A stretch of DNA of 64,000 nucleotides from an uncultured Phycisphaeraceae bacterium. GTDB lineage: Bacteria > Planctomycetota > Phycisphaerae > Phycisphaerales > UBA1924. The stretch's first letter is position 1; each line of letters starts with the position of its first letter. A program made the position numbers and the translations under genes. The notes beneath the pieces were generated by a model. It saw nothing but the letters and a program-made list of their open reading frames with translations. It ran no database searches and was not told the DNA's origin. Of this stretch, positions 39,070 to 63,593 are shown one piece after another. The stretch is from NCBI GenBank assembly GCA_964630785.1, contig CAZVZG010000001.1, forward strand, positions 207,427 to 271,426. Direction: 5' to 3'.

Positions 39070-39097
39070 GACCGGACCTTAGGCGCACAGGTGCCCG

Positions 39098-40030
39098 CCT
39101 CCCCCGCCACCGGCGGGGGAGGACAGACTTGAGGCGCAGCCTCAAGTCAGGAGGGGGTGTGTGTCCCTCCCCGCATCCGAGCCCTCCTCCCCCGCGCCCC
39201 GCGGGGGAGGACGTTCGAGCGCAGCGAGAACCGGAGGGGGTGCGTCTCCGTCAGCTCACCCACACCTCCATCCGCCTTGAAATCGCGCTTCAAGTCTGTC
39301 CTCCCCCGCCGGTGGCGGGGGAGGGGGCTCTCACACTCCGGCTCGCCCCCGCCCGCGCGTGCAGCGTCTCCCGAATCAGCCGCACAACCGCGGCCCGGCG
39401 GAAGGTCACACCCCGCGCCGACACCCGCAACGTCTCGATGTTCCGGGCCCGCATCCACTCGTCGCGCCGCCGATCCGCGTCGCGCCGGCCGTCGTGCCAG
39501 TCGCTGTCGATCTCCACCACCAACGCGGCCTCGTGACCATAGAAATCAGCCACGTACGGCCCGAGCGGGTGCTGCCGCCGAAACCTGAACCCATCCAGCC
39601 GGTTGCCACGAAGCTCGGACCACAGAATCCGCTCGACCGTGGTCATCCTCTCGCGCAGCGCCCCCGCAAGTTCATCGGCCGCATCCGTAGGACGAGTCCC
39701 ACGCTGATAAGCCCGTGGCATCTTCTCAACATACCACAACCCCAAGCCCGCCTCCCCCGCGCCCCGCGGGGGAGGCAGATTCAAGCGCAGCGAGAATCGG
39801 AGGGGGTGTGTCTCCTCCCCACACCCCCTCCTGACTTGAAGCGGCGCTTCAAGTCTGTCCTCCCCCGCCGGTGGCGGGGGAGGCGGCTGCGAGAACCGGC
39901 GGGGGTGTGTCTCTCCGCATCTGAACCCCACCCCCTCGGTATCGCCCCCATGCCCAACCCCAAAGTGCCTCCTCCCCCGCGCCCCGCGGGGGAGGACGTT
40001 CGAGCGAAGAGAGAACCGGAGGGGGTGAGG
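39098..40030. repeat. Array of GC-rich 25-bp palindromic REP-like elements in two subtypes (cctcccccgcgccccgcgggggagg and cctcccccgccggtggcgggggagg) forming ~140-bp composite units
   Basis: Copies at 39098, 39186, 39300, 39752, 39859 and 39970; a further copy at 42001; composite units 39186..39324 and 39752..39883 flank the DUF559 gene. Confidence 0.75.
39290..39721 (-). CDS. DUF559 (Vsr-like) endonuclease domain protein
   Basis: 'FRFRRQHPLGPYVADFYGHEAALVVEIDSDWHDG...ETLRVSA' matches DUF559/very-short-patch-repair-like fold; 3' end runs into the REP array. Confidence 0.55.
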   Translation of the reverse strand: MPRAYQRGTRPTDAADELAGALRERMTTVERILWSELRGNRLDGFRFRRQHPLGPYVADFYGHEAALVVEIDSDWHDGRRDADRRRDEWMRARNIETLRVSARGVTFRRAAVVRLIRETLHARAGASRSVRAPSPATGGGGQT

Positions 40031-40158
40031 TAGAAGGTAAGAGGTAAGAGGTAAGAGATGAGCGGTGAGAGGGAAGAGGCAAGCGGCAAGGCGGGCTCGG
40101 ACAGCAGCCGTGGCCGATGCCCACCCACCCCCTCCCCCCGGCGCGTTACGCTCCCGTC

Positions 40159-41982: not shown

Positions 41983-42117
41983 CCACAACCCAAGCCCCCC
42001 CCTCCCCCGCGCCCCGCGGGGGAGGACGTTCGAGCGCAGCGAGAACCGGAGGGGGTGTGTCCTCGCACGCCCCCCCCACCAAATCCCAACACCCTTCTGG
42101 TAAGATGCCGCCCGCGC

Positions 42118-43022: not shown

Positions 43023-43841
43023 TTGCTGCACGTCTCACACCCCGCCGCTTGCGCCGCCACCGTCCCGAGCGGCGAGCAGCTCCGCGTCACCCTCGCGACC
43101 CTCGCGCTCGGGTTCGTTTACGATCCCCCGGCCTTGTCTCCTCGACCAGCCCAACCCCGGCCGCTTTCGCCCGACGATGCCCGGGACCTCGCGCTCATCG
43201 AGCGCATCCGCGCCGGCGGTCCCGCCGATCGTGCGGCCTGGGGTGAGATGGTCCGCCTCTACCAAGACCGCATCTTCTCGGTCTGCATGAAGATGCTGCG
43301 CGACCGCGAGGCCGCGGCCGACCTCACCCAGGAGACCTTCGTCCGGCTCATCCAGGGGCTGGAGACGTACGACGGACGGTCCAAGCTCAGCACCTGGCTC
43401 ATCCGCGTGGCCATGAACGCCTGCCTGAGCTACCTGCGGGCCCAGAAACTGCGCAAGCACGCCAGCCTCGACGCCGGTCTGCCGCCATCACTTATTCGGG
43501 GGATTGGTGTTCGGGCTTCGGAAGGGGGATTGGGATCGGGCGGTCGAGCGCAAGGGGCGGGGCGGGAACAAACGCCCGGTCAGAGCGTCGAACTGCATGA
43601 GCAGCGGCGGCGTGTGGCCGCGGCACTCGCCGGCCTTGAGCCCGATCAGCGGGCGATCCTCATTCTAAGGGACGTGCAGGGCCTGGAGTACGAGCAGATC
43701 GCCGTCGTCCTTGAGATCGCCGGGGGCACGGTCAAGAGTCGGCTCTTCAGAGCCCGGATGGCCCTGAGAGAGGCACTCGAAAAACTGGAATCCCGCCCTC
43801 CCCCACCGTCCCCCCCTCCCCCCCAAGTCCCTCGTCCCTAG
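43023..43841 (+). CDS. ECF-type RNA polymerase sigma-70 factor (with N- and C-terminal extensions)
   Basis: Region 2 'DLTQETFVRLIQGLETYDGRSKLSTWLIRVAMNACLSYLR'; region 4 'LILRDVQGLEYEQIAVVLEIAGGTVKSRLFRAR'; start uncertain. Confidence 0.7.
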   Translation: MLHVSHPAACAATVPSGEQLRVTLATLALGFVYDPPALSPRPAQPRPLSPDDARDLALIERIRAGGPADRAAWGEMVRLYQDRIFSVCMKMLRDREAAADLTQETFVRLIQGLETYDGRSKLSTWLIRVAMNACLSYLRAQKLRKHASLDAGLPPSLIRGIGVRASEGGLGSGGRAQGAGREQTPGQSVELHEQRRRVAAALAGLEPDQRAILILRDVQGLEYEQIAVVLEIAGGTVKSRLFRARMALREALEKLESRPPPPSPPPPQVPRP

Positions 43842-43867: not shown

Positions 43868-45109
43868 GTGTTCCGCTACGACGACATCATCCGCGACCTG
43901 CCGGCCGGCCTCACCGAGACCGACCTGGTCGACATGGTCGACGGGACGGTGCCGGCCGAGCGGGAGTGGGTGGTGATCGACGCGCTTCAGGCCAACCCGC
44001 AACTGGGGCTGTTGGTGAAACAGCTTCGGATGGACCGCCTGGGCATGACGATGCTCGCCGACGACGTGGAAACGGCGCCCGCGAACATGAGGGAATCGAT
44101 CGAGGCTCGGCTGGATCGCCAAGCCCTGAACGAGCTGGTGCACGAGGCGGAAGAGGCATCCGCCCCGATCCCCATCAGCCGTGTTCAGCCGATCGGTTCG
44201 GGCGCCGGTCGCGGCCTGATCCGGGTCATCGCCGAGAGTGTGTGGGCGCGGCGAATGGCGACCGCCGCCTCCATCGCGATCGTCGGCGGCCTGGGCGTGC
44301 TGGGCGTCCGCGAGTTGCTGCGCAAGTGGCCGCGTCTGCCGGGGACTGTTCCGGTGGCTTCGACCGCGAGCGGAACTCAGGCCGCGCCGGGAGACGTGCC
44401 GGACGTGAAAATCGCCGGCGCGGGCGACGAGCCTGCTCCACCGGCCGAATCACAGTCGCCGACCGAGATTGCCGCAGGCCCCGCGCCGAACACACAGGCG
44501 CAGCCGGAGCAGGCGACCGAACGCCCGCTCACCGCGGCCGAGGCGGTCGCGCTGGCCCAGGAGGGTCGGCTCGTCATCACGGTGCGCACCTCGAAACTCG
44601 AAGGCACGCTTAAGCAGCTCGAGAGCATGTCGCGTGCGTCCGCCTCCACGGACATGCGCTGGCGCTCGCAGGACCTGGCCAACCTCCCCATCGAGATGGC
44701 GATGCTGGCCGTGCCGCTGCCCGACCCGACGCTGGACCCGCGCCCGCCGATGGACCCCGCGTTGGTCGGGCCGGTCCAGCCGCCGATCATGGCGTCGGAT
44801 GCGCACGCGGCCCCGGCCCCGGGCGTGCAGGCCCCGCGCCCGCAGCCCGCGGCGATCGGGTTCGCCCCGCCGCAGGTGCGCGTGCGGGCGATCCGCACGG
44901 TGCAGATGAGCGCGGACGTGCAGGAGCTCGAAGACCTGCTGAGCGACCTCAACGTATCCAAAGACGCGGTCGCGAGGTTCCGCGTGCTGCCCACGCCGAT
45001 CGAGGACCGCCCCTCGCTCGACCCCGAGAGCGTGCTGTGGTGGACCGCCGGATCGGACGGCTGGACGCACAGGGTCACGCTGCCGATTGTCGTGGAGACG
45101 GTCGAATAG
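43868..45109 (+). CDS. Putative anti-sigma factor (single-pass membrane protein)
   Basis: Immediately downstream of the ECF sigma gene; central TM 'AASIAIVGGLGVLGV'; Pro/Ala-rich periplasmic part. Confidence 0.45.
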   Translation: MFRYDDIIRDLPAGLTETDLVDMVDGTVPAEREWVVIDALQANPQLGLLVKQLRMDRLGMTMLADDVETAPANMRESIEARLDRQALNELVHEAEEASAPIPISRVQPIGSGAGRGLIRVIAESVWARRMATAASIAIVGGLGVLGVRELLRKWPRLPGTVPVASTASGTQAAPGDVPDVKIAGAGDEPAPPAESQSPTEIAAGPAPNTQAQPEQATERPLTAAEAVALAQEGRLVITVRTSKLEGTLKQLESMSRASASTDMRWRSQDLANLPIEMAMLAVPLPDPTLDPRPPMDPALVGPVQPPIMASDAHAAPAPGVQAPRPQPAAIGFAPPQVRVRAIRTVQMSADVQELEDLLSDLNVSKDAVARFRVLPTPIEDRPSLDPESVLWWTAGSDGWTHRVTLPIVVETVE

Positions 45110-45315: not shown

Positions 45316-46395
45316 TCACGGACATCCGGCGAAGTACGCGGCCAGGAAATCGAAGATGTCCTGCACCGAGATGCCCCCGCTGTGGTTGAAGTCCGCCGTC
45401 GGGCTGTTGCCGAAGTACGCCGCCAGAAAATCGAAGATGTCCTGCACGGAGACGTCGCCGCTCTGGTTGAAATCGGCAGGGCAGGATTGATCGGGGACCA
45501 GGGCGATGTCGTTGACCGAGCCGAGCGAGGAAATGACGGTCTCCTGGTTGTTCCCGTCGAGGTCCATCCGTCGGATCTCGCCGTAGATGAACCCGTCGCT
45601 GTCGAAGTCGTTGACGTCTTGCCCCCAATAGAGCTTGCCGTTGGGCAGGTCGAGCACGATGCCCTTCGGCGGGCCGACGAACGTGCCGGTGAAGAGCGGC
45701 TCCATGTTGGAGCCGTCGAGATTCGATCGACGGATCGTGCGGGTCACGGCGTCGGTCCAGTAGATCTTTCCGGCCGCGGCGTCGAGCGCAAGGTTGCCCG
45801 GCTTGAAACTCGACCCGACCGTGGGCACCGCGACCTGCGGGTCGGACCCGTCGAGGTTGGAACGGTTGATGCGCCCGGTGGCGGCGGTGAGAGAGACGGT
45901 CCAATAGAGGCGGTTGCCGGCGTGGTCGATCGCCAGGCCGCGGAAGAACGACGTCGAAAACAGGGGAAGCCCGCCGCCCGCGAGCGGCGCGGACCCGACG
46001 ACCTCGTTGGTCTGATCGCCCCAGAAGAGCGCCCCCGCGGCGAGGTCGAGGCGAAGCGCCGAGGGGAACGCCAGGCCGGAGTTGACGACGTCCTGCTGGC
46101 CCGTGCCGTCGAGGTGGGCCCGCCGGATGACGAAGTTGTCCACGTCGGTCCAGTAGATGTAACCACCGGCGGCGTCGACGTCGAGACCGCGAACGCCGCC
46201 GCCGGTCGGGACAACCGTGTGCAGCCCGACCCCGTCCGTGCGGACGCGCCGGATCGAGTTGCCGTCCGGGTCCGCGGCGTTGAGCACGTCGGCGAAGATC
46301 AGGTCGTCAGCCATCGCGGGCAACGCCAGCGCGCCCAGCGCGAGCACGGCTATGAGGTGGAGGCGCATACAGGGCTCCCGGTGCAGGCCGCGCAC
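45316..46395 (-). CDS. Secreted YWTD-type beta-propeller protein with C-terminal tandem dockerin-like 'DIFDFLAAYF...GCP' modules
   Basis: Signal peptide 'LIAVLALGALALPAMA'; repeated 'YWTD/YWTV/YWGQ' blades; C-terminus 'ADFNQSGDVSVQDIFDFLAAYFGNSPTADFNHSGGISVQDIFDFLAAYFAGCP'. Confidence 0.7.
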   Translation of the reverse strand: MRGLHREPCMRLHLIAVLALGALALPAMADDLIFADVLNAADPDGNSIRRVRTDGVGLHTVVPTGGGVRGLDVDAAGGYIYWTDVDNFVIRRAHLDGTGQQDVVNSGLAFPSALRLDLAAGALFWGDQTNEVVGSAPLAGGGLPLFSTSFFRGLAIDHAGNRLYWTVSLTAATGRINRSNLDGSDPQVAVPTVGSSFKPGNLALDAAAGKIYWTDAVTRTIRRSNLDGSNMEPLFTGTFVGPPKGIVLDLPNGKLYWGQDVNDFDSDGFIYGEIRRMDLDGNNQETVISSLGSVNDIALVPDQSCPADFNQSGDVSVQDIFDFLAAYFGNSPTADFNHSGGISVQDIFDFLAAYFAGCP

Positions 46396-46772: not shown

Positions 46773-49217
46773 TCAGTGCCTGAGCGTCACCTTCGTGGTG
46801 TTGTTGCTCATCCACGCGTCGCTCGCGTCGGTGACGGTCAACCGGATCTTGATCTGCTGATCGATCGTCCAGTTCAGCCGACTCGACCAACCGAACTTCA
46901 GCCGATGCACCGCGGCCGTCGCCTCCGACGGCAGGCCGATGAACTGGTACCGGCCGCGACGCAGGCGCTCAAAGCCGCTGGAGTTGATCGAGCTGGTGAT
47001 GAAGTCGCCCTTCCGCGGCAGATTGATCGTCACCGTCACCGTCACGGGCTGGGCCGGGTCAACGTCCGTGATCAGCACGCGCCGGAACGGCTTGACGTTC
47101 CTGTTGAATCTCATCGTGCTGTTGGTCAGGCGCGTGAACACGGGGGCGTCGTTCACCGAGTCGATGGTGATGTCCGCGGTCTGGGCCGCGACGGCCGGGC
47201 CCAGTCCGTCGCTCACGTACACGCCAAAAGAAAGGTTCGCGGCGTTCCCGACCGGCGCGATGTTCTCGCTCGGGCGGAAGACCAGTTGGCGGATGGCGGC
47301 CGTGGCCGCGCCGGCGTTGCCGGTGAAGCGGTACGTGCCCGTTGCGCCCATGACCAGCGCAAAGCCGCTGGCCGCGAGGCTCTCGGGCGTGAGCACGCCC
47401 ACACCGGCACCGAGCACGACGTCGACCGTCAGCGTTGGCGGCCCGAAGTCGACGGTGGTGATCGTGGTCTGCGTGAAGGGGGCGAGCGTGTCTTTGTCGG
47501 AGATGTGGAACGGCCCGCCCGCGACGGCGAGCACGGGCTCGTTGCGCACGGACCGCGACGCGATGAAGGGGCTGAACGCCTGGGCGCCAACGCCCAGCCC
47601 GTCGTTTGCGGTGATCGTAAAGAGCGTAACCGAGGACTGGCCGACGGGGGCGATGTTCTCGGCGGGCTTGAACACGAGCTGGCGGATCGCGGCCGTCGCG
47701 CTCGCCGCGGCGCCCGTGAAGCGGTACGCGCCGGTCGCCGCGTTCACGGCCGTGAACCCGGCCGCGTTGAGACTGGCGCTGGTGAGCACGCCGCGGGAAG
47801 CGTCGTTGATGGTCAGGTCGATGGTCAGCGCCCGCGACGCGCTGTCGATGTAGCCGATCGTCACCGCCTGGAAGGGCGTGACGGTCTGATTGTCGTTGAG
47901 GGTGAACGAGCCGCCGGTGGGCTGGGGGCTGGAGACGGTCGGCGCATCGCGCACCGGCAGCACCGACAGCGCCGACCACACGCTCTGGTCGCTCACCGTG
48001 CCCTGCAAGAGCGGTGAGCCGATATCGGCGTGCGTGCCGGCATCGCCGGCGATCCGGTCCCAGGCGCGGAAGCGGAGCGCCTGGCCGATCGAGCCGTTGA
48101 AGTTCGCGCCGGGGACGAAGCGGACTCGGGTCGTGGCGTCGGCCGCGAGCAGCAGGGCCGACCCGTCGGAGACCGCCCCGACGGCGTTCCACGTGGAACC
48201 GTTGAGCGAGTATTGCCACACGCCGGCGGCCGCGTCCAGACCGGTGATCGCGATCCCGCTGAGGGCGCCCGGGCTGGGGTCGGTGACGAGGCCCGCGGTG
48301 AGGCTGCTCACGAGCGAGCCGGCGTTGTTCGCGTCGTCCTCGTTGATCGCGCCGAGCGCGGGCGTGGGACCGGGAGCGATTGCCGGAGCGCGCCGGGCCG
48401 GCTCCATCGCCATGCCGCGGATGGTGTACTGCGAGCCATCGCCGATCGTGCCGATCTCGACAAAGCTGTGGCCGTCTTCGCCGATCGTGCCGAACTTCTG
48501 CACGCCCGCGACCCGCAGGGAGAGGTACGGCGTGCCGTCGGCGGCGTAGTCCAGGCCGACGAAGCGGTCGGTGTCGACGCCCAGCGACCCGCCGCCGAGG
48601 ACGGTCATGCGCTCGGGGTCGAGGTCCATGAACTCGTCGGTGATGTAGTTGACCCCACTGAAGCCGAAGTTGTCCGGGTCGCCGTTGAGCGGCCGGTACG
48701 CGATCTCGGCCAACCCCTCCTGGCCGGCGTCGTTACGGAGCTGGAGGCCGGTCGCGGGGTCGAGGCGGTAGTTGCCGAAGGTCTCGTCGATGTACCGGAG
48801 ATAGCCGTGCAGCTCGTCGTACGCGAGCCCGGTCGCCTGGCTGGTGGGGAAGCCGAAGGGCACGCCGGGCCCGACGCGCGTGGCGACGCCGGTGAGCCGG
48901 TCGATGGTGTACACCGGCGTGCGCGTGCCGCTGGGGATGCCGTAGAGCCGCTCGCCGACGGTGTCGAAGTCGAGCGCGCTCATGACCTCGCCCGCACCCA
49001 GGCCCGTGATCGGCAGCGAGCGAACGATGGCCGCGGGGTTGGCCGAATCGAACTCGAGCAGCGTGTTGTTGTCGGTGACGGCGAAGACGCTGGAGAGGAA
49101 CTGGCGCGATTCGAGCGCCTCGACGGCCTCGCCCGCGCTGGCGGTCAGCGCGTGCGACAGCCCGGCCGAACCCCTCTTCCCCCTCCTGAGGGACGATTGC
49201 GAACCGTGGGAACGCAT
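46773..49217 (-). CDS. Large secreted adhesin-like protein with N-terminal DUF4394-like region and Ig-like/VCBS-type repeats
   Basis: 'SVNDAPVFT' cadherin/VCBS-type motif; repeated ~100-aa beta-sandwich-like segments; N-terminal region resembles DUF4394. Confidence 0.6.
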   Translation of the reverse strand: MRSHGSQSSLRRGKRGSAGLSHALTASAGEAVEALESRQFLSSVFAVTDNNTLLEFDSANPAAIVRSLPITGLGAGEVMSALDFDTVGERLYGIPSGTRTPVYTIDRLTGVATRVGPGVPFGFPTSQATGLAYDELHGYLRYIDETFGNYRLDPATGLQLRNDAGQEGLAEIAYRPLNGDPDNFGFSGVNYITDEFMDLDPERMTVLGGGSLGVDTDRFVGLDYAADGTPYLSLRVAGVQKFGTIGEDGHSFVEIGTIGDGSQYTIRGMAMEPARRAPAIAPGPTPALGAINEDDANNAGSLVSSLTAGLVTDPSPGALSGIAITGLDAAAGVWQYSLNGSTWNAVGAVSDGSALLLAADATTRVRFVPGANFNGSIGQALRFRAWDRIAGDAGTHADIGSPLLQGTVSDQSVWSALSVLPVRDAPTVSSPQPTGGSFTLNDNQTVTPFQAVTIGYIDSASRALTIDLTINDASRGVLTSASLNAAGFTAVNAATGAYRFTGAAASATAAIRQLVFKPAENIAPVGQSSVTLFTITANDGLGVGAQAFSPFIASRSVRNEPVLAVAGGPFHISDKDTLAPFTQTTITTVDFGPPTLTVDVVLGAGVGVLTPESLAASGFALVMGATGTYRFTGNAGAATAAIRQLVFRPSENIAPVGNAANLSFGVYVSDGLGPAVAAQTADITIDSVNDAPVFTRLTNSTMRFNRNVKPFRRVLITDVDPAQPVTVTVTINLPRKGDFITSSINSSGFERLRRGRYQFIGLPSEATAAVHRLKFGWSSRLNWTIDQQIKIRLTVTDASDAWMSNNTTKVTLRH

Positions 49218-55446: not shown

Positions 55447-55543
55447 ACCGAGCGGCCGAGCGGCGTGCCCACAATCCGTGAAAGAGAAACGGGGCGGCCC
55501 GCATGAGCCGCCCCGTGTCGTTGCGCGTGATGCCGGAATCGGA

Positions 55544-58500
55544 TCAGCCCGGGCAGCCGGTGAAGTATGCGCCCAGGAAGTCGAAGATGTCCTGCACGGT
55601 GATGCCGCCTGAACTGTTGAAGTCCGCGCCGGGCTGCCCGCCAAAGTAAGCCGCGAGGAAATCAAAGATGTCCTGCACGGTCACGCCGCCCTGCTGGTTG
55701 AAGTTGGCCGGGCAGCATGCGACCGGGTTGCCGGCGCCGCCGCAGGCCGAGCCTGCGCCCACGAACGCGCCCGAGCAGTCGGCGGCGGTCGCGACGGTGC
55801 AAGTCGTCCCGTTGCAGCAGGCCCCCGTGGGCTGCGGGCAGGGGTTGGGGCTGCACGCCGAGCCGACCCCCATGAAGCTGTCGGAACACCCGGCCGTGGT
55901 GGCGATGTTGCAGGCGCCATCGGTCGCGCAGCAGGCGCCCGTGGGTTGCGGGCATTGGTTGGGGCTGCACGTTGAGCCCGCACCCAGGAAGTTGTCGGAG
56001 CATCCGGCCGCGGTCGTGGCGATGCACGTGCCGTCTGTGGCGCAGCAGGCGCCGGTGGGCTCGGGGCAGGGGTTGGGATCGCAGACCCCGCCGCTCGTCC
56101 AGGCACGTCCCGCGTCGCAGTCGGCTTGCTCGCTCATGACGCACCCGCCCAAGGCCGAGCAGCAGGCGCCGGTGGGCTGCGGGCATGGGTTGGGGTTGCA
56201 CACGGCGTCGCCGGGCGCGAACGTGCCGGTGGAGCAGCCCGACTGGTCGGACACCGTGCAGCCGCCGTCGGCGGCGCAGCAGGTGCCCAGCGGCTGCTCG
56301 CAACCGGGCACCTCGCACGTGGTGCCGTTGCCGCTGAACGTGCTCGTGCCCAGGCACTCGCTGGAGGCGGTGATCGTGCACCCGCCCGAGGAGTCGCAGC
56401 AGGCGCCCACGACCGGCGTGAACGTCAGGATGACGTCGGCGGTGCCCGTCTGCCCCACGATGATGCTGCCGATCTGGAAGAGGTAGGTGTGCCCGTCCTG
56501 CACAAAGACGTTGAAGGACGAGCCGAAGTCGTCGCAGCCGACGGCTGCGCCGGGCGGGCAGTTGCCGCCGTGGTAGACCGCGACGCGGCTGCTGAACGGC
56601 GTGGGCGACCCGGCGGTGGCGCTGTCGGTCGTCACGTTGAGGTTGCCGTTGGCGGGCGCGACCCACGTGTACCAGACGTCCTGGTTGATCGGTCCGGCCG
56701 CGGGGCAGCCCGTGCCGGGAAAGCTCTGAATCAAGCCGGTCGTGGCGTTGGTGTTGGTGAACGGGCGCGGCCCGGCGACGCTGCCCCACGAGATCGGCGC
56801 CGCGCAATCGTCGTTGGCGGGCGGGGTGTTGGTGACGCTGAAGACACCGTTGGCCGTGGCCACCTGGCCGGTGCCGTCGGCGTTGCTGATCGTGACGTTT
56901 CGCGAGCCGACCGCGGCGCCGGCGCCGATGACGAACGACAGGCCGTTGACGGTCGAGCCGCCGCCGGAGATCACGGGCGTTCCGGTGACCGTGACCCCGC
57001 CGCCGGAGACCGTGACCTGCGAAGCGCTGCTCACGCCCGCGAGATTGACGCCGGTGATGGTGACCGGGATCGTCGCGCCGGACTGGCCCGTGTTGGGGGT
57101 GACTGACGAGATGCTGCTCACCGCGCCCACCACCGCCACGCTTATCGTGTCCGTCGCGGACATGCCGTTGGAGTCGGTGACGCGCAGCGTGACGTTGAAC
57201 AGGCCGTTGGAGTTGTACGTGAACGTGGGCTGGGGGTTATCGAGCGTCTCGAAAACGCCGTTGCCGTCCAAGTCCCAGTCGTAGCTGGCGTTGTTCAGGA
57301 TCGCGCCGCTCTCGTTGGTGCGCGAGTTGAGGTTGCCCATGAAGTAGCAGACCTGCCCGGCCGCAACGCGCTTGTTCACGCCGGCGATCGCCGTCGGCGG
57401 GGCCTTGGAGTTGCCCACGCGGATGGTCAGGTCGTAGAGCTGCACGATCTGGTCGTTCGGACCGTCGGGCCCCGAGTCGATGACACGCACCGTGTACGTC
57501 CCCGCGCTCAGGCTGCCGGCCGGGATGCTCTCGGTGGCGCCCGCCGCGGCGCTGTTGGCCTGGAGCAGGACGGTGCTCCCGTTCGAGTCCCGCAGCTCGA
57601 CGTCCAGGTTCCCCGCCGCCGAGGCGTTGACGGCGGGCGGGCTGGTCGGGTTGCACCCGCCCGACTGCTGACCGTTGGCGTAACTGCCGCCCGTTGGTAC
57701 CACCGTGATGGTGACGTTCTGGGCCGACGAGAGCGTGAACTTGAACCAGTCCTGGTTGGTGTTGTTGATGCCCGCGGCGCCGTTGGTCGAGAGGCTCCGC
57801 TCGATGATCGACTTGAGCACGGGCGAGGTCAGGTCGCCGAAGTCCTTGGCCGAACCGGCGGAGTTGTTGCCGGCGAACCGGTCGCCGTAGTTGCGCTGAG
57901 CGCCGCGCAGCTCGTCGACCTGCGTCATCTCGAAGTTGGTGTTGGCGAACGGCTCCATGAGCTTGGTGCCGTTGCAGGGCGTGGTGTGGATGAACCCCAG
58001 CCCGTGCCCGTGCTCGTGGGCCACCACGTTGCGGAAGTACCGGAAGTTGCTCGACCCCCCGAACATGCTGCCGGTGTTCAACTCGTCGGAGTTGATCACC
58101 ATGTCCGAGCCGCCGTTGGGGAAGTAGTTGTACGCCAGCACGCCCGTGTTGCCCTGCGGACGCGAGCCGATGCGCACTTCACCCCCGCCGGCCGCCCCGG
58201 CCGAGCCGGTGAACGGCGAGTTGTTGTCGGCGACCTCGGTGTAGCTCAGACCGCTGTAGCGTCGCCACGACGCCAGCGCCTGTCGGACGTACTCGCGCCC
58301 CCGGTCGATGTTGGCCGTCCCGAACTGCGCGTTGAACTTCGAGTTGAGGTTGTTCGACCCGCCGTCCCACGACACGCCGTCGTTGGGGAACGAGAACCGC
58401 AGGCTCGCCGGCGTGGCCCGGCCCGAGGCGCCCTGACCGCCGTTACCGGTCCACACCAGGTTGCTCGTGAAGAACCGGTTGTTCAGCCCATCTTGCAACA

Positions 58501-58828
58501 CACCGCCCACGGGCAGGGCGTTGAAATGCTGCATGATGTACTCCATCTGCTCGGGCGTCGGGTTGGCCACGAAGCAGCGGGGGGCCTGCGCCACCATGTC
58601 CAGGAGCAGCGTCCGTCGTTCTCGGGCCTGCGAGGCCGTCTCTCCCATGGGCGCGGCCGCATCGCTGCGCTCCACCAGGGCGTCCAGACGCTCGCCCAGG
58701 CCGTCGTGGGGCTTGGCGGTCGCCGCCGTGGTCTCCGCGGCCGCCCGGCCGAGGCACGTGCCCGCCGCCATCAGGGTGACGAGAAACACCGTGGCCACGT
58801 GGCCCGTACAAAACCCATTCGACTTCAT
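55544..58828 (-). CDS. Giant secreted multidomain protein: metzincin-like Zn protease, PPC, PKD, IPT/TIG and 7 six-Cys repeats, ending in tandem dockerin-like GCP tail
   Basis: Signal peptide 'VATVFLVTLMAAGTCLG'; 'VVAHEHGHGLGFIH' HExxHxxGxxH; PKD 'YDWDLDGNGVFE...FNVTLRVTDSNG'; repeats 'NPCPQPTGACCxxDGxC...'; C-terminus 'VQDIFDFLAAYFGGQPGADFNSSGGITVQDIFDFLGAYFTGCPG'. Confidence 0.75.
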   Translation of the reverse strand: MKSNGFCTGHVATVFLVTLMAAGTCLGRAAAETTAATAKPHDGLGERLDALVERSDAAAPMGETASQARERRTLLLDMVAQAPRCFVANPTPEQMEYIMQHFNALPVGGVLQDGLNNRFFTSNLVWTGNGGQGASGRATPASLRFSFPNDGVSWDGGSNNLNSKFNAQFGTANIDRGREYVRQALASWRRYSGLSYTEVADNNSPFTGSAGAAGGGEVRIGSRPQGNTGVLAYNYFPNGGSDMVINSDELNTGSMFGGSSNFRYFRNVVAHEHGHGLGFIHTTPCNGTKLMEPFANTNFEMTQVDELRGAQRNYGDRFAGNNSAGSAKDFGDLTSPVLKSIIERSLSTNGAAGINNTNQDWFKFTLSSAQNVTITVVPTGGSYANGQQSGGCNPTSPPAVNASAAGNLDVELRDSNGSTVLLQANSAAAGATESIPAGSLSAGTYTVRVIDSGPDGPNDQIVQLYDLTIRVGNSKAPPTAIAGVNKRVAAGQVCYFMGNLNSRTNESGAILNNASYDWDLDGNGVFETLDNPQPTFTYNSNGLFNVTLRVTDSNGMSATDTISVAVVGAVSSISSVTPNTGQSGATIPVTITGVNLAGVSSASQVTVSGGGVTVTGTPVISGGGSTVNGLSFVIGAGAAVGSRNVTISNADGTGQVATANGVFSVTNTPPANDDCAAPISWGSVAGPRPFTNTNATTGLIQSFPGTGCPAAGPINQDVWYTWVAPANGNLNVTTDSATAGSPTPFSSRVAVYHGGNCPPGAAVGCDDFGSSFNVFVQDGHTYLFQIGSIIVGQTGTADVILTFTPVVGACCDSSGGCTITASSECLGTSTFSGNGTTCEVPGCEQPLGTCCAADGGCTVSDQSGCSTGTFAPGDAVCNPNPCPQPTGACCSALGGCVMSEQADCDAGRAWTSGGVCDPNPCPEPTGACCATDGTCIATTAAGCSDNFLGAGSTCSPNQCPQPTGACCATDGACNIATTAGCSDSFMGVGSACSPNPCPQPTGACCNGTTCTVATAADCSGAFVGAGSACGGAGNPVACCPANFNQQGGVTVQDIFDFLAAYFGGQPGADFNSSGGITVQDIFDFLGAYFTGCPG

Positions 58829-59135
58829 CGCTACCTCCGCTATTTCCGATCGAGGGCTGAAAAGCCCCGGGCGAACGGCCCGAGAATCGCGGACACGGCT
58901 CCGCAGTCCAACCGGCGCCGGCCCGTCGAGCACGATCCCATACGCCGAGGGCCAGTCATCGGCTCCATCCTACCCGCAAGTCAGTCCACAACACGCCATA
59001 TCTCGGAAACGCGCGCACGATAGAGCAGGACCACGCCACCGAGCGAGGGCAAGCCACCGGCTGGATTCGGTGATCTTGCGGCCTTTCCACGCCATTGCCG
59101 GGGGGCCCCGAACCGAGCCCTTCACCCCCAGAACG

Positions 59136-62100
59136 TCAGCCGGGGCAGCCCTGGAAGTACGCCCGCAGGTAGGCGAACAGGTCTTCGAGCGTTACGGCAC
59201 TGTCTCCGTTGAAATCCGCGGCTAGCGACTGCAACTGCCACGCGGCAAGGTAGTCGAACAGGTCCTGAACACCCACGCCGTTCACGCCGTTGAAGTTGGC
59301 CGGGCAGCAGGTGGTCGGGTTGCCGGTCGGGCCGCACGCGACCCCATCGCCCTGGTACGCGCCGCCGCTGCACGAGCCCGCATCGGTCACCACGGTGCAG
59401 GTGGTCCCGGCGCAGCACGCACCGCCCGAACTCGGGCAGCCAGCGAAGTACGCCGCGAGGAAGTCGAAGATGTCCTGCACGCTCACGGCGCCCGAACCGT
59501 TGAAATCAGCGCTGGGGTCCACCGCGAAGTACGCGCCCAGGAAATCGAAGATGTCCTGCACACTCACGCCGTCCATGCCGTTGAAGTTGGCCGGGCAGCA
59601 GGTCGTCGGGTTGCCCGGCGTGCCGCACACGGTGCCCGCGCCCTTGAACACCGCCGGCGCGACGCAGCCGGCCGCGGCCAGGAGGGTGCACGTCGTCCCG
59701 TCGCAGCAGGCGCCGGTGGGCTGCGCGCACGGGTCGGGCGTGCAGGTCTGGGCCGGCAGGAACGTCCCGCCCAGGCACGCGGACTGCAGCACGACCGAGC
59801 ACGCGCCGCCCGCGCCGCAGCACGCGCCGGGCTGAGCGCACGGGCTGGGCGAGCAGGTCTGGCCCGGCACGAACGCGCCGCCCTGACCGTTGCACGCAGC
59901 CGGGGTGAGCCCGGAGACGCACGCCCCCGTGGAGACGATGCAGCACACCCCGCTGGGTGGCGGGCACAGCGTCGGCGAGCAGGCCGCGCTGGCGTGCCAC
60001 GCGCCCGAGGTGCAGTCGGCCTGAAGCACGAACGCGCTGCACAGGCCGCTCGCCGTGTCGCAGCACGCCCCGCGCGGCGGGGGGCAAACGCCCGGGTCGC
60101 ATACGGTGACCGACGAACTGAACGTGCCGGTGCACTCGCCCGGCGTATTGACAACCGAGCAATCGCCGGTCGGCGAGCAGCAGACGCCCGGCGTCGGCTG
60201 GGCGCACGGGTCGGGCGTGCAGACCGCCCCGACCGTCCACCCGCCGGCGCACGCGGAGTGGGTAGTCACGGCGCAGCCGGATACGGTGCAGCAGGCGCCG
60301 GTCATCTGCGCGCAGGGGTCCGGGTCGCACACGCCGTCGGCCGTCCACGCGCCGGGGCAGTCGGCCTGGAGCGTGATCTCGCACGCCAGGTCGGGCACGC
60401 AGCAACTCCCGGTCGAGGTCTGGCAGCTCGCGGGCGTGCACGCCGCGCCGGGCGAGAACACGCCGTTGGAGCACTCGGCGAGCGTGGCGTTCACGCACTG
60501 CCCGTCGGGCAGGCAGCACGCCCCGGGCGGCGGCGGCGGGCAGGGGTTCGGGGCGCACGCGCCGCCGGGGGCCCATGAGCCCGAGCAACCGGTCTGCGGG
60601 CTGAGCGTGCACGAGCCGTCGGCGTGGCAGCACGAACCGACGGGCTGCGGGCACGGGTTGCCCGCGCAGGTCAGCCCGAGCGGGTTCCAGTCGCCGCCGA
60701 TACAGTCGGCCTGGGTGATGATCGAGCACTGACCGCTGGGATAGCAGCAGCGTCGCAGCGGCTGCGGGCAGGGGTTGGGCGAGCAAACGTTGGCCGCGTT
60801 GAACAGCCCATCGCACGACACCGGCGCGACGTTCATCGTGCACGCGCCAGTGTTCGCGTTGCAGCACGAGCCGACCAGGTCGGCAAAGGCCAGGTCCACG
60901 CAGGCCGACCCGACGTGGCCCTCGTTCACGCCCCCGACGCGGAACAGCAGGCGGTCGCCGATCTGCACGTTCAGCGTGAACATCTCGCCGCAGGCCAGCA
61001 GGTTGACCGACGCGGGCGGGCACGCGATCGGGCCCGCGGGCAGTCGGTACGCGGCCACGACGCTCGGGAACGGCGCGGGCGTCGCGCCGGCCTCGTTGCT
61101 CCGCGAATGAACGCTCAACATCCCCGTCTGCGAGGCGGTCCAGACGTACCACACGTCGTTGTGCAGCGTCGAGCCCTCGCAACCCGAGCCGGTGTAGTCT
61201 TGCTCTTCGCCGGTGGTCGCGCCGCGGCTGTCAAAGGGCTTGCACCCCGGCCCGGCCGTCCAGATGTCGGGCGCGGAGCACCCGTCGTTCGGGGGAGCGG
61301 GAACGGCGTCCAGCACCGTGATCGCGCTGTCAAGGAACCCGGCGGTGCACCCGTCGGTGATGCGCACGTCGCGAGCGCTCAGCTCCGCATCGGCGGCCAC
61401 GGTAATCGTCAGCCCGGTGATGGAAGTCCCGGCTCCGCCGACCACGGGCACGCCGCCGAGCGTCACGCCTGTGCCCGACACCGTGATCTGGTTGAGCGCC
61501 ATGACCGCGCCCAGGCCGGTGCCGGTGATCGTGATCGGGATCGTCGTGCCGCGGTACGCAAACGCGGGCGTGACCGATGTCACGGAGATCGGCGCGCCGG
61601 TTACCGTAACGAAGATCGTGTCCGTGGCCTGAAGCCCCGCGGCCGGGTCGGTCACGCGCAGCGTGACGGGAATGATCCGGTTCTGATCGGTGTAAAGGGC
61701 GAAGGGAAATCGCGGGTTGTTGGGAAACTGACCCTCGGGCGGGTTGTCGAGGCTGTCGATGTTGATCTCGAACGTGCCGTCGCCGTCGAGGTCCCACTCG
61801 AAGTTGGCCGTGCGCGAGCTCAGCGGTTCGCTGTTGGGGTCCTGCGAGCGGGACAGCAGGTCGCCGATGAACTGCACGTACTGCCCCAGCGGGGCGTACT
61901 TGTCCACGCCGGCGACGGCGTAGGGCGAGTACTTCACCGGGTTCTCGTCGGGGCCGAGGCGGACGGACAGGTCGTAGAGCTGCGTGGGCTGGTCGGCCAG
62001 GTAGCTCGCGCTCCCGCCCGAATCGAACACGCGGATGTAGTAGGTGCCCGCGGGCTGCACGCCGGCGTCGATCGTCTCGACCGCGCCGGCCGCGTTGGTG

Positions 62101-63593
62101 TTGGCCTCGCGGAACGGCGTGCCCTCGCCGTCGCGGAAGAACTGGATGTCGAGGTTGCCGATGGCGACGGCGTTGACCGAGGTTGCCGGGCCGGAGCACG
62201 GCGCGGGGCTGCCATCGACCTGCTGGCCGTTGACGTAAGCGTCGCCCGTCGGCGTCACCTTGATCACGATCCGCTGCGGGTTCTCGATCGTGAACCTGAA
62301 CCAGTCCTCCCCGGAGGGGTTGGGCAACATCGTGCCCGGGTTGATGACCGGCCCGTTGGTCGAGAGGTCTCGCTCCAGCACCGAGTGCGGGTGCAGGCCC
62401 AGCGCCGGCTCGTTGTGGTCGAGCGCGACCGACACCGGGTCGTTGGCGTTGCCCAGGCTCGGGTACCGGGCCGAGTCGGTCGGCGGGTTGCCGGGCGTGA
62501 TGATCCATTGACGCCCCAGGTCCCGCGCCGCCTCGCGCGTCTGGTTGCCCGCGAAGCGATCGCCGTAGTTGTGCTGCGCGCCCCGCTTCTCGTCGATCTG
62601 CACCATGTCGTACACGGTCGACGAGAACGGCTCCATCAGCTTGGTCTGGCTGCACGGGATCACGTGCCGAAAGCCCAGGCCGTGTCCGTGCTCGTGCGCG
62701 ATCACGTTGCGCAGGTAGCGGTACCCGTTGCTGGCCGAGAAGTACGGGGGCGGCGCCGTGTCACCCGGCTCGACGAAGTAGCTCGAGTTGAGCACCATGT
62801 CGCCGCCGAACTCGGGGAAATAGTTGAACGCCAGCACGCCGAACCCCTCGCCCTGGGCGTAGGAGCCGAAGCGGATGTCGCCGTGCGTGCCCGGACCGGC
62901 CGGTGGGAACGGGTCCCACGGCGCGTCGTCGTCGCACACCTCCATGTACCGCACCGAGCACGCGCGTTCCCAGCCGGCAAGCACCTGGCGGAACAGCTCG
63001 CGACCGTACGCGACGCCCGGCCCCGGCAGCGCCGGCAGCGGCGGATCGACCGACGTGTCCGGCATGGTCCGACCGATGAGGTCGGCGCTCAGGCGGTTGA
63101 GCTGGCCCTCCGGCCCCCACACCACGCCGTCATTCGGGAACGAGTACGTCAGCAGCGAAATCGGCTTGGCCTGGCCGATCTGCGTTGTGAACGCCGCGCC
63201 GCTCCCGTCCCACGCGCTCACGTCCAGGAAGAACCGGTTGTTGAGGCGGGTGATCCGCTCGGCGGGGTTGCGCCCGCCGTAGTACGCCGCGATCGCTTCG
63301 AGCTGCGCCGGCGTCGGGTTGCCGATGAAGCAGCCCTCCGCGTTGCGGATTCGTTCCAGCAGCCTCGTGCGCCGCGCGCCCGGCGCTTCGCCGGCGCGCT
63401 CGGCATCGCGCGTCGCCAGGTCGAGCAGCGTCTGCAACGTGCCGTCGGCCGCCGGCGCGGCCGAATCTCTCAAGCGCGCACCGACCCCATCGGGCGCGAA
63501 CGCGCCGTGCGCGACCGAGCCCGCGAGGAGCGCCGCAGCCGCACATCCCGCGGCCGCAGCCGCCCGAGCCGATCTCTTCGCCATGCTCGCCAT
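59136..63593 (-). CDS. Paralogous giant secreted protein: metzincin-like Zn protease, PPC, PKD, IPT/TIG and 15 six-Cys repeats, with two pairs of dockerin-like GCP modules
   Basis: 'VIAHEHGHGLGFRHVIPCSQTKLMEP'; same domain order as 55544..58828; C-terminus has 2 dockerin-like modules, one extra Cys repeat, then 2 more modules ending 'AYFQGCPG'. Confidence 0.75.
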   Translation of the reverse strand: MASMAKRSARAAAAAGCAAAALLAGSVAHGAFAPDGVGARLRDSAAPAADGTLQTLLDLATRDAERAGEAPGARRTRLLERIRNAEGCFIGNPTPAQLEAIAAYYGGRNPAERITRLNNRFFLDVSAWDGSGAAFTTQIGQAKPISLLTYSFPNDGVVWGPEGQLNRLSADLIGRTMPDTSVDPPLPALPGPGVAYGRELFRQVLAGWERACSVRYMEVCDDDAPWDPFPPAGPGTHGDIRFGSYAQGEGFGVLAFNYFPEFGGDMVLNSSYFVEPGDTAPPPYFSASNGYRYLRNVIAHEHGHGLGFRHVIPCSQTKLMEPFSSTVYDMVQIDEKRGAQHNYGDRFAGNQTREAARDLGRQWIITPGNPPTDSARYPSLGNANDPVSVALDHNEPALGLHPHSVLERDLSTNGPVINPGTMLPNPSGEDWFRFTIENPQRIVIKVTPTGDAYVNGQQVDGSPAPCSGPATSVNAVAIGNLDIQFFRDGEGTPFREANTNAAGAVETIDAGVQPAGTYYIRVFDSGGSASYLADQPTQLYDLSVRLGPDENPVKYSPYAVAGVDKYAPLGQYVQFIGDLLSRSQDPNSEPLSSRTANFEWDLDGDGTFEINIDSLDNPPEGQFPNNPRFPFALYTDQNRIIPVTLRVTDPAAGLQATDTIFVTVTGAPISVTSVTPAFAYRGTTIPITITGTGLGAVMALNQITVSGTGVTLGGVPVVGGAGTSITGLTITVAADAELSARDVRITDGCTAGFLDSAITVLDAVPAPPNDGCSAPDIWTAGPGCKPFDSRGATTGEEQDYTGSGCEGSTLHNDVWYVWTASQTGMLSVHSRSNEAGATPAPFPSVVAAYRLPAGPIACPPASVNLLACGEMFTLNVQIGDRLLFRVGGVNEGHVGSACVDLAFADLVGSCCNANTGACTMNVAPVSCDGLFNAANVCSPNPCPQPLRRCCYPSGQCSIITQADCIGGDWNPLGLTCAGNPCPQPVGSCCHADGSCTLSPQTGCSGSWAPGGACAPNPCPPPPPGACCLPDGQCVNATLAECSNGVFSPGAACTPASCQTSTGSCCVPDLACEITLQADCPGAWTADGVCDPDPCAQMTGACCTVSGCAVTTHSACAGGWTVGAVCTPDPCAQPTPGVCCSPTGDCSVVNTPGECTGTFSSSVTVCDPGVCPPPRGACCDTASGLCSAFVLQADCTSGAWHASAACSPTLCPPPSGVCCIVSTGACVSGLTPAACNGQGGAFVPGQTCSPSPCAQPGACCGAGGACSVVLQSACLGGTFLPAQTCTPDPCAQPTGACCDGTTCTLLAAAGCVAPAVFKGAGTVCGTPGNPTTCCPANFNGMDGVSVQDIFDFLGAYFAVDPSADFNGSGAVSVQDIFDFLAAYFAGCPSSGGACCAGTTCTVVTDAGSCSGGAYQGDGVACGPTGNPTTCCPANFNGVNGVGVQDLFDYLAAWQLQSLAADFNGDSAVTLEDLFAYLRAYFQGCPG

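Follow-up and report, generated by a model that had tools for sequence, protein, structure and literature searches.

The 64,000-nucleotide stretch analysed here (the window), from contig CAZVZG010000001.1 of an uncultured Phycisphaeraceae bacterium, carries two adjacent genes on its minus strand, A and B, which encode a pair of modular proteins with a zinc protease domain near the N-terminus and a short calcium-loop module of the dockerin type at the C-terminus. The two proteins are best explained as an old tandem pair of secreted M10A-like (matrixin-type) zinc endopeptidases of a Phycisphaerales bacterium. On balance it appears probable that they are Sec-exported zymogen metalloproteases, which are held at the cell surface by a calcium-dependent GC-type dockerin and projected on a disulfide-rich stalk of variable length. 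Both belong to a kind that annotation pipelines already recognise, while the six-cysteine module that makes up the stalk is the undescribed part of the proteins, having no counterpart in Pfam, NCBIfam or the PDB.

Two intact, paralogous genes for predicted metalloproteases

Gene A (55544..58828, stop codon included) and gene B (59136..63593, stop codon included) lie in uninterrupted minus-strand open reading frames (ORFs) that span 55544-58933 and 59136-63593, respectively, with a third-position GC content (GC3) of 0.93 in each; all features of the two genes given below are on the same strand. In A, the GC3 is only 0.65 over the 102 bases that separate the earliest possible GTG from the ATG at 58828, and the start is therefore placed at this ATG, which gives a protein of 1094 amino acids (aa) where the initial annotation had counted 1095; its figure of 1485 aa for B stands. 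The products, identical to the database proteins P0001 (A) and P0009 (B), had been called giant, and at these lengths are large rather than giant. A and B align collinearly from end to end, with insertions, at 38% identity over ~1,190 columns, and B therefore shares the architecture of A. From the N- to the C-terminus this comprises a signal peptide, a propeptide, a matrixin-type protease domain, PPC, PKD, TIG-like and galactose-binding-like domains, an array of six-cysteine modules and the dockerin or dockerins. A has six modules and one dockerin; in B eleven modules are followed by a dockerin, a twelfth module and a second dockerin. The intact ORFs, the zinc motifs, the Pfam matches and the collinear alignment bear out the earlier view of tandem, same-strand paralogues with such a domain order, and the disruption of the frames that had been considered as an objection to it is not seen. 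A terminator-like GC-rich hairpin with a T-rich tail is located just 3' of A (55489..55516, minus strand) and the interval between B and A yielded no such hairpin, as would fit co-transcription of the two genes. A scan for sigma-70-like promoters found none, the sigma-70 pattern being uninformative for this lineage.

The A protein starts with a predicted Sec signal peptide (MKSNG...LGRAAA/E; 58736..58828), in which a hydrophobic core is followed by AxA. Its catalytic domain (57884..58327) scores 33.4 bits with Pfam Peptidase_M10 (cut-off 24) and has MMP-11, MMP-16 and karilysin as its PDB matches; the zinc site HEHGHGLGFIH, with an invariant PC and the KLMEP Met-turn behind it, occupies 57950..58018. 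There follow a pre-peptidase C-terminal (PPC) domain (57482..57751; 32.1 bits, cut-off 25.9), a PKD domain (57131..57403; PKD_4, 41.3 bits, cut-off 27) that matches the PKD domains of the collagenases ColH and ColG in the PDB, and a weak IPT/TIG-like domain (56837..57115), whose 18.8 bits fall under the cut-off of 20.9 and whose family, PF01833, is recorded for some homologues. The next segment (56414..56815), with the motif NDDC...DVWYxW, had been taken for a second PPC-like module. It is instead a galactose-binding-like domain of the GBD_T9SS_assoc type (PF23759), sub-threshold on the isolated A segment (E 9.6e-5) and clear in homologues; the same family domain is present in 11 of 95 other proteins with a GC-type dockerin. 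In B, the matrixin-type domain (62562..63146, limits approximate from the alignment to A) includes the zinc site HEHGHGLGFRH with the PC and the KLMEP Met-turn (62628..62696). Taken alone, this domain (M10, 19.8 bits against 24) and the PPC-like domain of B (62025..62309; 24.7 bits against 25.9) are both sub-threshold in Pfam, and the PKD-like, TIG-like and galactose-binding-like segments (60879..61928) have no Pfam match of their own and are assigned by the collinear alignment to A only.

A search with A retrieved 458 homologues, of which the named ones come almost all from metagenome-assembled genomes (MAGs) of Phycisphaerales or Phycisphaeraceae; their GenBank names read 'matrixin family metalloprotease', 'GC-type dockerin domain-anchored protein' or 'immunoglobulin domain-containing protein'. 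The ten loci taken from species-representative genomes are, without exception, from Phycisphaerales or Phycisphaeraceae MAGs. One close GC-dockerin homologue, P0100, bears the label of a Pyrinomonadaceae (Acidobacteriota) MAG, which may reflect misbinning or a transfer beyond Phycisphaerales. The motif HExxHxxGxxH, present in both A and B, is found in 106 of the best 120 homologues, and in 97 of these 106 the KLMEP Met-turn lies 7 residues past the zinc motif, with its Met 10 residues past the third His. A cysteine four residues past the third zinc His, in the context HxxPC[ND]xTKLMEP, is invariant (106 of 106) and is C285 in A. A second cysteine, 154-223 residues upstream of the zinc motif in the propeptide and in a P-x-C-[FYW] context, is present in all 101 full-length homologues; it is C85 of A, encoded at 58574..58576 (PRCFVANPTPEQ), and its surroundings read PRCFVANP in A and EGCFIGNP in B. 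The canonical PRCGxPD cysteine switch is not present in the propeptides of A and B. As judged from the alignments, the two cysteines together are a family signature distinct from classical matrixins, and they could act as a disulfide tether or as a non-canonical cysteine switch, which makes the propeptide cysteine a candidate latency residue.

Orthologues of both forms with similar lengths occur in other MAGs (P0002, 1079 aa; P0012, 1486 aa; locus L001), and the tandem of a long and a short form recurs in GCA_020846975.1 beside different flanking genes; the duplication is therefore old and has been retained. A pseudogene reading was rejected, as both ORFs are intact and have a coding GC3. The N-terminal domains of B, all of which are under Pfam thresholds, could be taken to mean that the pair are what is left of a protease family, in decay or turned non-catalytic and adhesin-like, but the uninterrupted frames with their high GC3, the catalytic motifs, all intact in A and in B, and the similar-length orthologues of both forms make this highly improbable.

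The GC-type dockerin tail

The C-terminal module is recognised by the NCBIfam model NF041540, 'GC-type dockerin domain-anchored protein', with 33.5 bits in A, 62.7 bits in B (two copies) and 37.4 bits in a third protein of the window, C, all above the curated cut-off of 29. Gene C (45316..46368, minus strand) encodes a secreted YWTD/LDL-receptor-B β-propeller of 350 aa (Ldl_recept_b), with a signal peptide upstream of the propeller, no cysteine stalk, and a GC-type dockerin at 45319-45483 (SCPADFN...AYFAGCP; E 4e-30 with the local hidden Markov model, HMM). The proteins end in GCPG (A and B) and GCP (C). The dockerin of A (CPANFN...AYFTGCPG) is encoded at 55547..55714; B has an internal one (59430..59597, ending ...AYFAGCPS) and a terminal one (59139..59306, ending ...AYFQGCPG), which are the two stretches matched by the model. 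Each dockerin is made up of two segments of the form (D/N)-F-N-x-x-G-x-V-x-V-Q-D-I-F-D-F-L-x-A-Y-F, in which an EF-hand-like loop of 12 residues is followed by a helix; D/N1, N3, G6 and D12 of the loop are conserved, D12 being invariant in both loops across 101 sequences. The initial annotation was thus correct about the dockerin-like nature of the tail and about its paired calcium loops, which are the two loop-helix segments within each dockerin, and it missed that A holds one dockerin and B two. It had also held the proteins to be of no described family, and had allowed that an annotated C-terminal dockerin would count against this. The claim holds for the cysteine repeat and fails for the tail, whose homologues are already named after it, though what describes the domain so far is a curated model. 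Literature searches by domain name, model number and repeat motif found no publication on the GC-type dockerin, NF041540 or the cysteine module.

An AlphaFold2 model of the dockerin, calculated from the alignment of 101 sequences, has a pLDDT of 88.9 and shows a loop-helix-loop-helix arrangement with helices at residues 18-30 and 45-57. Its best PDB matches in Foldseek are cohesin-bound dockerins (5lxv_B, 2vn5 and 4fl4_J; TM-score 0.57-0.64, root mean square deviation 2.2-3.2) from Ruminococcus flavefaciens, Clostridium cellulolyticum and C. thermocellum, at E values above 2. A link in sequence is provided by six short orthologues of the M10-PPC-PKD(-TIG) layout (P0069, P0087, P0103, P0108, P0037 and P0110), which pass Pfam Dockerin_1 with 28-31 bits against a threshold of 22.9. 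In P0069, P0087, P0103 and P0108, which end in ...GC, the Dockerin_1 match coincides exactly with the GC-dockerin HMM match, and through these orthologues a transitive case for homology to classical dockerins can be made.

A dockerin profile built from the four window dockerins was searched against 1.84 billion representatives and found 8,723 cluster representatives at E <= 1e-3, of which 2,947 reach E <= 1e-10. In all 134 representatives that were retrieved the last cysteine is 0-3 residues from the C-terminus, the endings being GCP (46), GC (39), then GCA, GCS and others. The cargo, from a Pfam scan of 95 representatives, includes galactose-binding-like and immunoglobulin (Ig) domains, several β-propellers, DUF11, β-helix, C-type lectin, M23 and C25 peptidases and a sugar dehydrogenase. 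In one 609-aa protein, P0360, seven separate stretches match the GC-dockerin profile, and this may be a poly-dockerin protein. Genes for GC-dockerin proteins are also seen in clusters in other Phycisphaerales MAGs, with four consecutive same-strand genes at L011 3397-14562 and three at L006 8546-18149.

The strictly C-terminal position of the tail in thousands of otherwise unrelated secreted proteins would also suit a C-terminal export or sorting signal, similar to the C-terminal domain (CTD) of the type IX secretion system (T9SS) or to PEP-CTERM, that is handled by a dedicated Phycisphaerales machinery and possibly removed or attached covalently. The tail moreover stands where, in other phyla, GBD_T9SS_assoc domains are followed by the T9SS CTD, the NCBIfam name speaks of an 'anchored' protein, and no cohesin was found nearby in the window. 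In B and its orthologues, however, there is also a full internal copy that has both of its cysteines, and behind it come a cysteine module and the second dockerin; the tail domain can therefore do without a free C-terminus, which favours docking over a cleaved export signal, as do the predicted dockerin-like fold and the EF-hand-like loops. Neither the hydrophobic helix nor the basic tail of exosortase and sortase signals can be recognised, and TIGR04183 and Por_Secre_tail match weakly and inside the PPC domain rather than at the tail (TIGR04183 at best 16.6 bits against a cut-off of 23, residues 401-453). A sorting signal is accordingly considered unlikely. Three specific assignments were rejected. 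The T9SS CTD (TIGR04183 / PF18962) was dismissed because the only match to a tail model is sub-threshold and internal, a PEP-CTERM-like tail because a hydrophobic helix is missing, and a lipoprotein because the N-terminal cysteines appear to lie outside canonical lipoboxes.

The six-cysteine module

The stalk of A consists of six tandem modules (55715..56407) and that of B of eleven (59598..60872), with the twelfth located between the two dockerins (59307..59423). Splitting of the arrays at the CC dipeptides gave modules of 37-41 aa, and 15 aligned copies have six invariant cysteine columns, their consensus being GACC-x3-G-x-C-x7-C-x2-G-x4-G-x2-C-xPxPC-PQPT. The repeat is most naturally delimited as GxCC-x5-C-x7-C-x9-12-C-x4-C with a PQPT linker behind it, and the ~36-aa consensus reported initially is a circular permutation of this unit; the repeat array itself is real. 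An HMM of the module finds each copy at E values of 1e-5 to 1e-16 and nothing beyond the A and B copies in a six-frame translation of the window. Three tandem modules were modelled by AlphaFold2 with a pLDDT of 95.5, each as three short strands. The module has no Pfam match at E <= 10, no Pfam or NCBIfam match was obtained in ten proteins that consist mostly of it, and no PDB match was found by sequence-profile search or, beyond a TM-score of 0.2, by Foldseek.

The unit that precedes each dockerin ends in GNPxxC and is directly followed by the dockerin's own cysteine (CPANFN); in C, which has no stalk, a single cysteine is found at the same dockerin position (SCPADFN). This arithmetic of six cysteines per module and two per dockerin suggests three disulfides within each module and one bond that would clamp the ends of the dockerin.

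Among the best 120 homologues, 95 end in a GC-dockerin. Between 1 and 15 cysteine modules are present in 56, and 55 of these also end in the dockerin; another 40 have the dockerin and no cysteine module, many of them with recorded Ig-domain matches. The copy number of the module thus ranges from 0 to 15 in orthologues, and Ig domains fill the same place in others. Two dockerins and 9-15 modules are the rule in the long forms of the B type (1381-1750 aa). At the DNA level the only tandem repeat in either gene is at 55814-56077 (114 bp, 2.3 copies, 80% identity) and corresponds to modules 4-5 of A, which indicates a relatively recent duplication of these. A recent expansion of the repeats as a whole was rejected since DNA-level similarity is confined to this pair, and the arrays are therefore old.

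The module is not restricted to these proteases. A di-repeat profile finds small secreted proteins (P0242-P0262, for example L012 4001-4429 of GCA_030431975.1) that consist of a signal peptide, two modules, a proline-rich linker and a terminal TWGxIKxxYR motif, one of them from a Candidatus Eisenbacteria MAG, and in the Thermodesulfovibrionales proteins P0261 and P0263 the module is placed upstream of an IPTL-CTERM sorting signal. As it stands ahead of other C-terminal tags in other phyla, the module is not lineage-specific, as had been thought possible, and is a widespread spacer before different anchors. The TWGxIKxxYR motif has no Pfam or NCBIfam model and could represent a new type of C-terminal anchor or sorting motif.

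Proposed docking at the cell surface and relation to known systems

The display of A and B on the cell surface may be pictured as follows. The proteins would be exported through Sec by means of their N-terminal signal peptides and would undergo oxidative folding in the periplasm, forming three disulfides per six-cysteine module and one between the two terminal residues of each dockerin; this pairing is proposed because the cysteine pattern is invariant and because protein C, without a stalk, has only the two dockerin cysteines. A propeptide of ~150 residues would confer latency, its invariant cysteine acting as a zinc ligand or pairing with the cysteine four residues past the third His. The PPC, PKD, TIG and galactose-binding-like domains, from the known roles of their families, probably bind substrate or space the catalytic domain. 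The 6 or 12 cysteine modules, which vary in copy number and have a confidently predicted fold, would form a stiff, protease-resistant stalk of variable length. At its end the GC-type dockerin, well identified as such, would dock the enzyme non-covalently to a conserved cell-surface receptor, and the two dockerins of B would raise its avidity or let it bridge two receptors. The helices (VQDIFDFLxAYF) hardly vary over thousands of cargo types, which suggests a single conserved partner. The function of A and B would be the breakdown of extracellular protein close to the cell.

Several points weigh against this picture. No cohesin or other candidate receptor was found in the 64-kb window, to which the search was confined. 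The tails of A and B have no Pfam Dockerin_1 (PF00404) match even at E <= 10, and the structural likeness is accompanied by Foldseek E values above 2, the domain being tiny, and by a PDB profile match to a dockerin at E 0.38 only. The protease domain of B is under the Pfam threshold on its own, and signal peptides, paired cysteines, bound calcium, a latent state and an active protease are inferred in every case. With these reservations, the surface-displayed or docked protease of the initial annotation appears to be the best-supported reading, and the cohesin-like partner for which it had suggested a search was not found in the window.

The missing receptor would also be explained if A and B were freely released exoproteases, in which the cysteine modules and the calcium-binding tail stabilise the enzyme or bind substrate such as polysaccharide or protein particles. 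Bacterial collagenases and proteases that are released typically carry PPC, PKD and galactose-binding-like domains, and non-cellulosomal dockerins with unknown partners are common according to the statement in PMC6461901 that cites Peer et al. 2009. Yet helices so extremely conserved over thousands of cargo types indicate one partner and not varied substrates, and a variable stalk length is most readily understood as serving display away from a surface. Free release thus seems a rather improbable fate for these proteins, and surface docking is retained as the preferred reading.

Parts of A and B resemble known systems and depart from them in specific ways. NF041540 describes the C-terminal module ending in GC, GCP or GCPG, and its name is shared by the GenBank homologues, but the model spans only the ~55-aa tail and is silent on protease, stalk and receptor. 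Cellulosomal type I dockerins (PF00404) are similarly built of two tandem segments of calcium loop and helix, ~22 residues each, and the predicted fold appears to agree at a TM-score of ~0.6. In contrast to them, the GC-type module is predicted to be clamped by two invariant cysteines, one at either end, its helices are nearly invariant, its cargo consists of proteases, lectins and propellers instead of glycoside hydrolases, and its host here is of the Gram-negative type, with no cohesin found in the window. Karilysin of Tannerella forsythia, a bacterial MMP-like enzyme with a C-terminal surface or secretion domain, and the animal MMPs (M10A) share with A and B the HExxHxxGxxH motif, the short Met-turn spacing and the Peptidase_M10 match, which is above threshold in A only. 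They differ in that A and B have no PRCGxPD switch, the propeptide cysteine being in a P-x-C-[FYW] context ~185 residues upstream, that the cysteine four residues past the third His is invariant, and that the C-terminal extensions are much longer. The clostridial collagenases ColG and ColH likewise have PKD and PPC-type domains after a zinc protease, whereas their catalytic family is M9, and M10-like here, and they have neither dockerin nor cysteine stalk. The closest precedent in concept is the 'planctosome' hypothesis for Nemodlikiaceae (Phycisphaerae), in which surface-docked, dockerin-bearing zinc peptidases were proposed for protein degradation (Andrei et al. 2019 ISME J; PMC6461901). That model involves M12B and M14 peptidases, classical cohesin and dockerin Pfam matches and a lamin-tail-domain anchor (PMC6461901), while A and B have an M10-type protease, a GC-type dockerin and a cysteine-module stalk; both models are hypotheses.

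The genes around A and B are ordinary. Among their products are an Mrp/NUBPL ATPase, an ECF sigma factor, a gamma-glutamyltranspeptidase, an S9 peptidase, those of topA, ppk1 and gatB, a phosphoglucomutase, a Ser/Thr kinase and several proteins without a family match. Pfam and NCBIfam scans of 24 further proteins of the window returned only housekeeping genes, one DUF4394 repeat protein and several unmatched proteins. Near gene C are the gene for the ECF sigma factor (43023-43841) and, at 43868-45109, one without a family match that may encode an anti-sigma factor. An 814-aa protein adjoining gene C (46773-49217, minus strand) has an N-terminal DUF4394 domain, is weakly similar to tandem-95 repeats and has no GC-dockerin. 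GC-rich palindromic intergenic repeats resembling REP elements (core CCTCCCCCGCGCCCCGCGGGGGAGGAC) are located at 39084-40046 and 41987-42076, with 4-5 direct copies and several inverted pairs whose complementarity reaches 96%. Flanked by them is a short ORF (39290-39931) whose product looks, by eye, like a DUF559-type endonuclease.

For routine purposes, the description 'matrixin-family metalloproteases anchored by GC-type dockerin' is adequate for A and B, which are clear and intact examples of a very large GC-dockerin class with a curated HMM and 8,723 clusters at 50% identity. The six-cysteine module, compact, confidently folded in the model and with three predicted disulfides, merits a family definition and a solved structure. 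Phycisphaerales are abundant heterotrophs of water and soil, and a wider and more speculative proposal may be made for them. Display on a phylum scale is conceivable, in which thousands of unrelated exoproteins, A and B among them, would dock through disulfide-clamped GC-dockerins on one conserved receptor, as a 'planctosome' that would parallel the cellulosome but degrade protein, and the six-cysteine module would be an undescribed fold that serves in several phyla as a rigid stalk before GC-dockerin, IPTL-CTERM and TWGxIKxxYR tails. The receptor, if found, would provide a direct test of the 'planctosome' idea and could give an orthogonal calcium-dependent docking pair for protein engineering.

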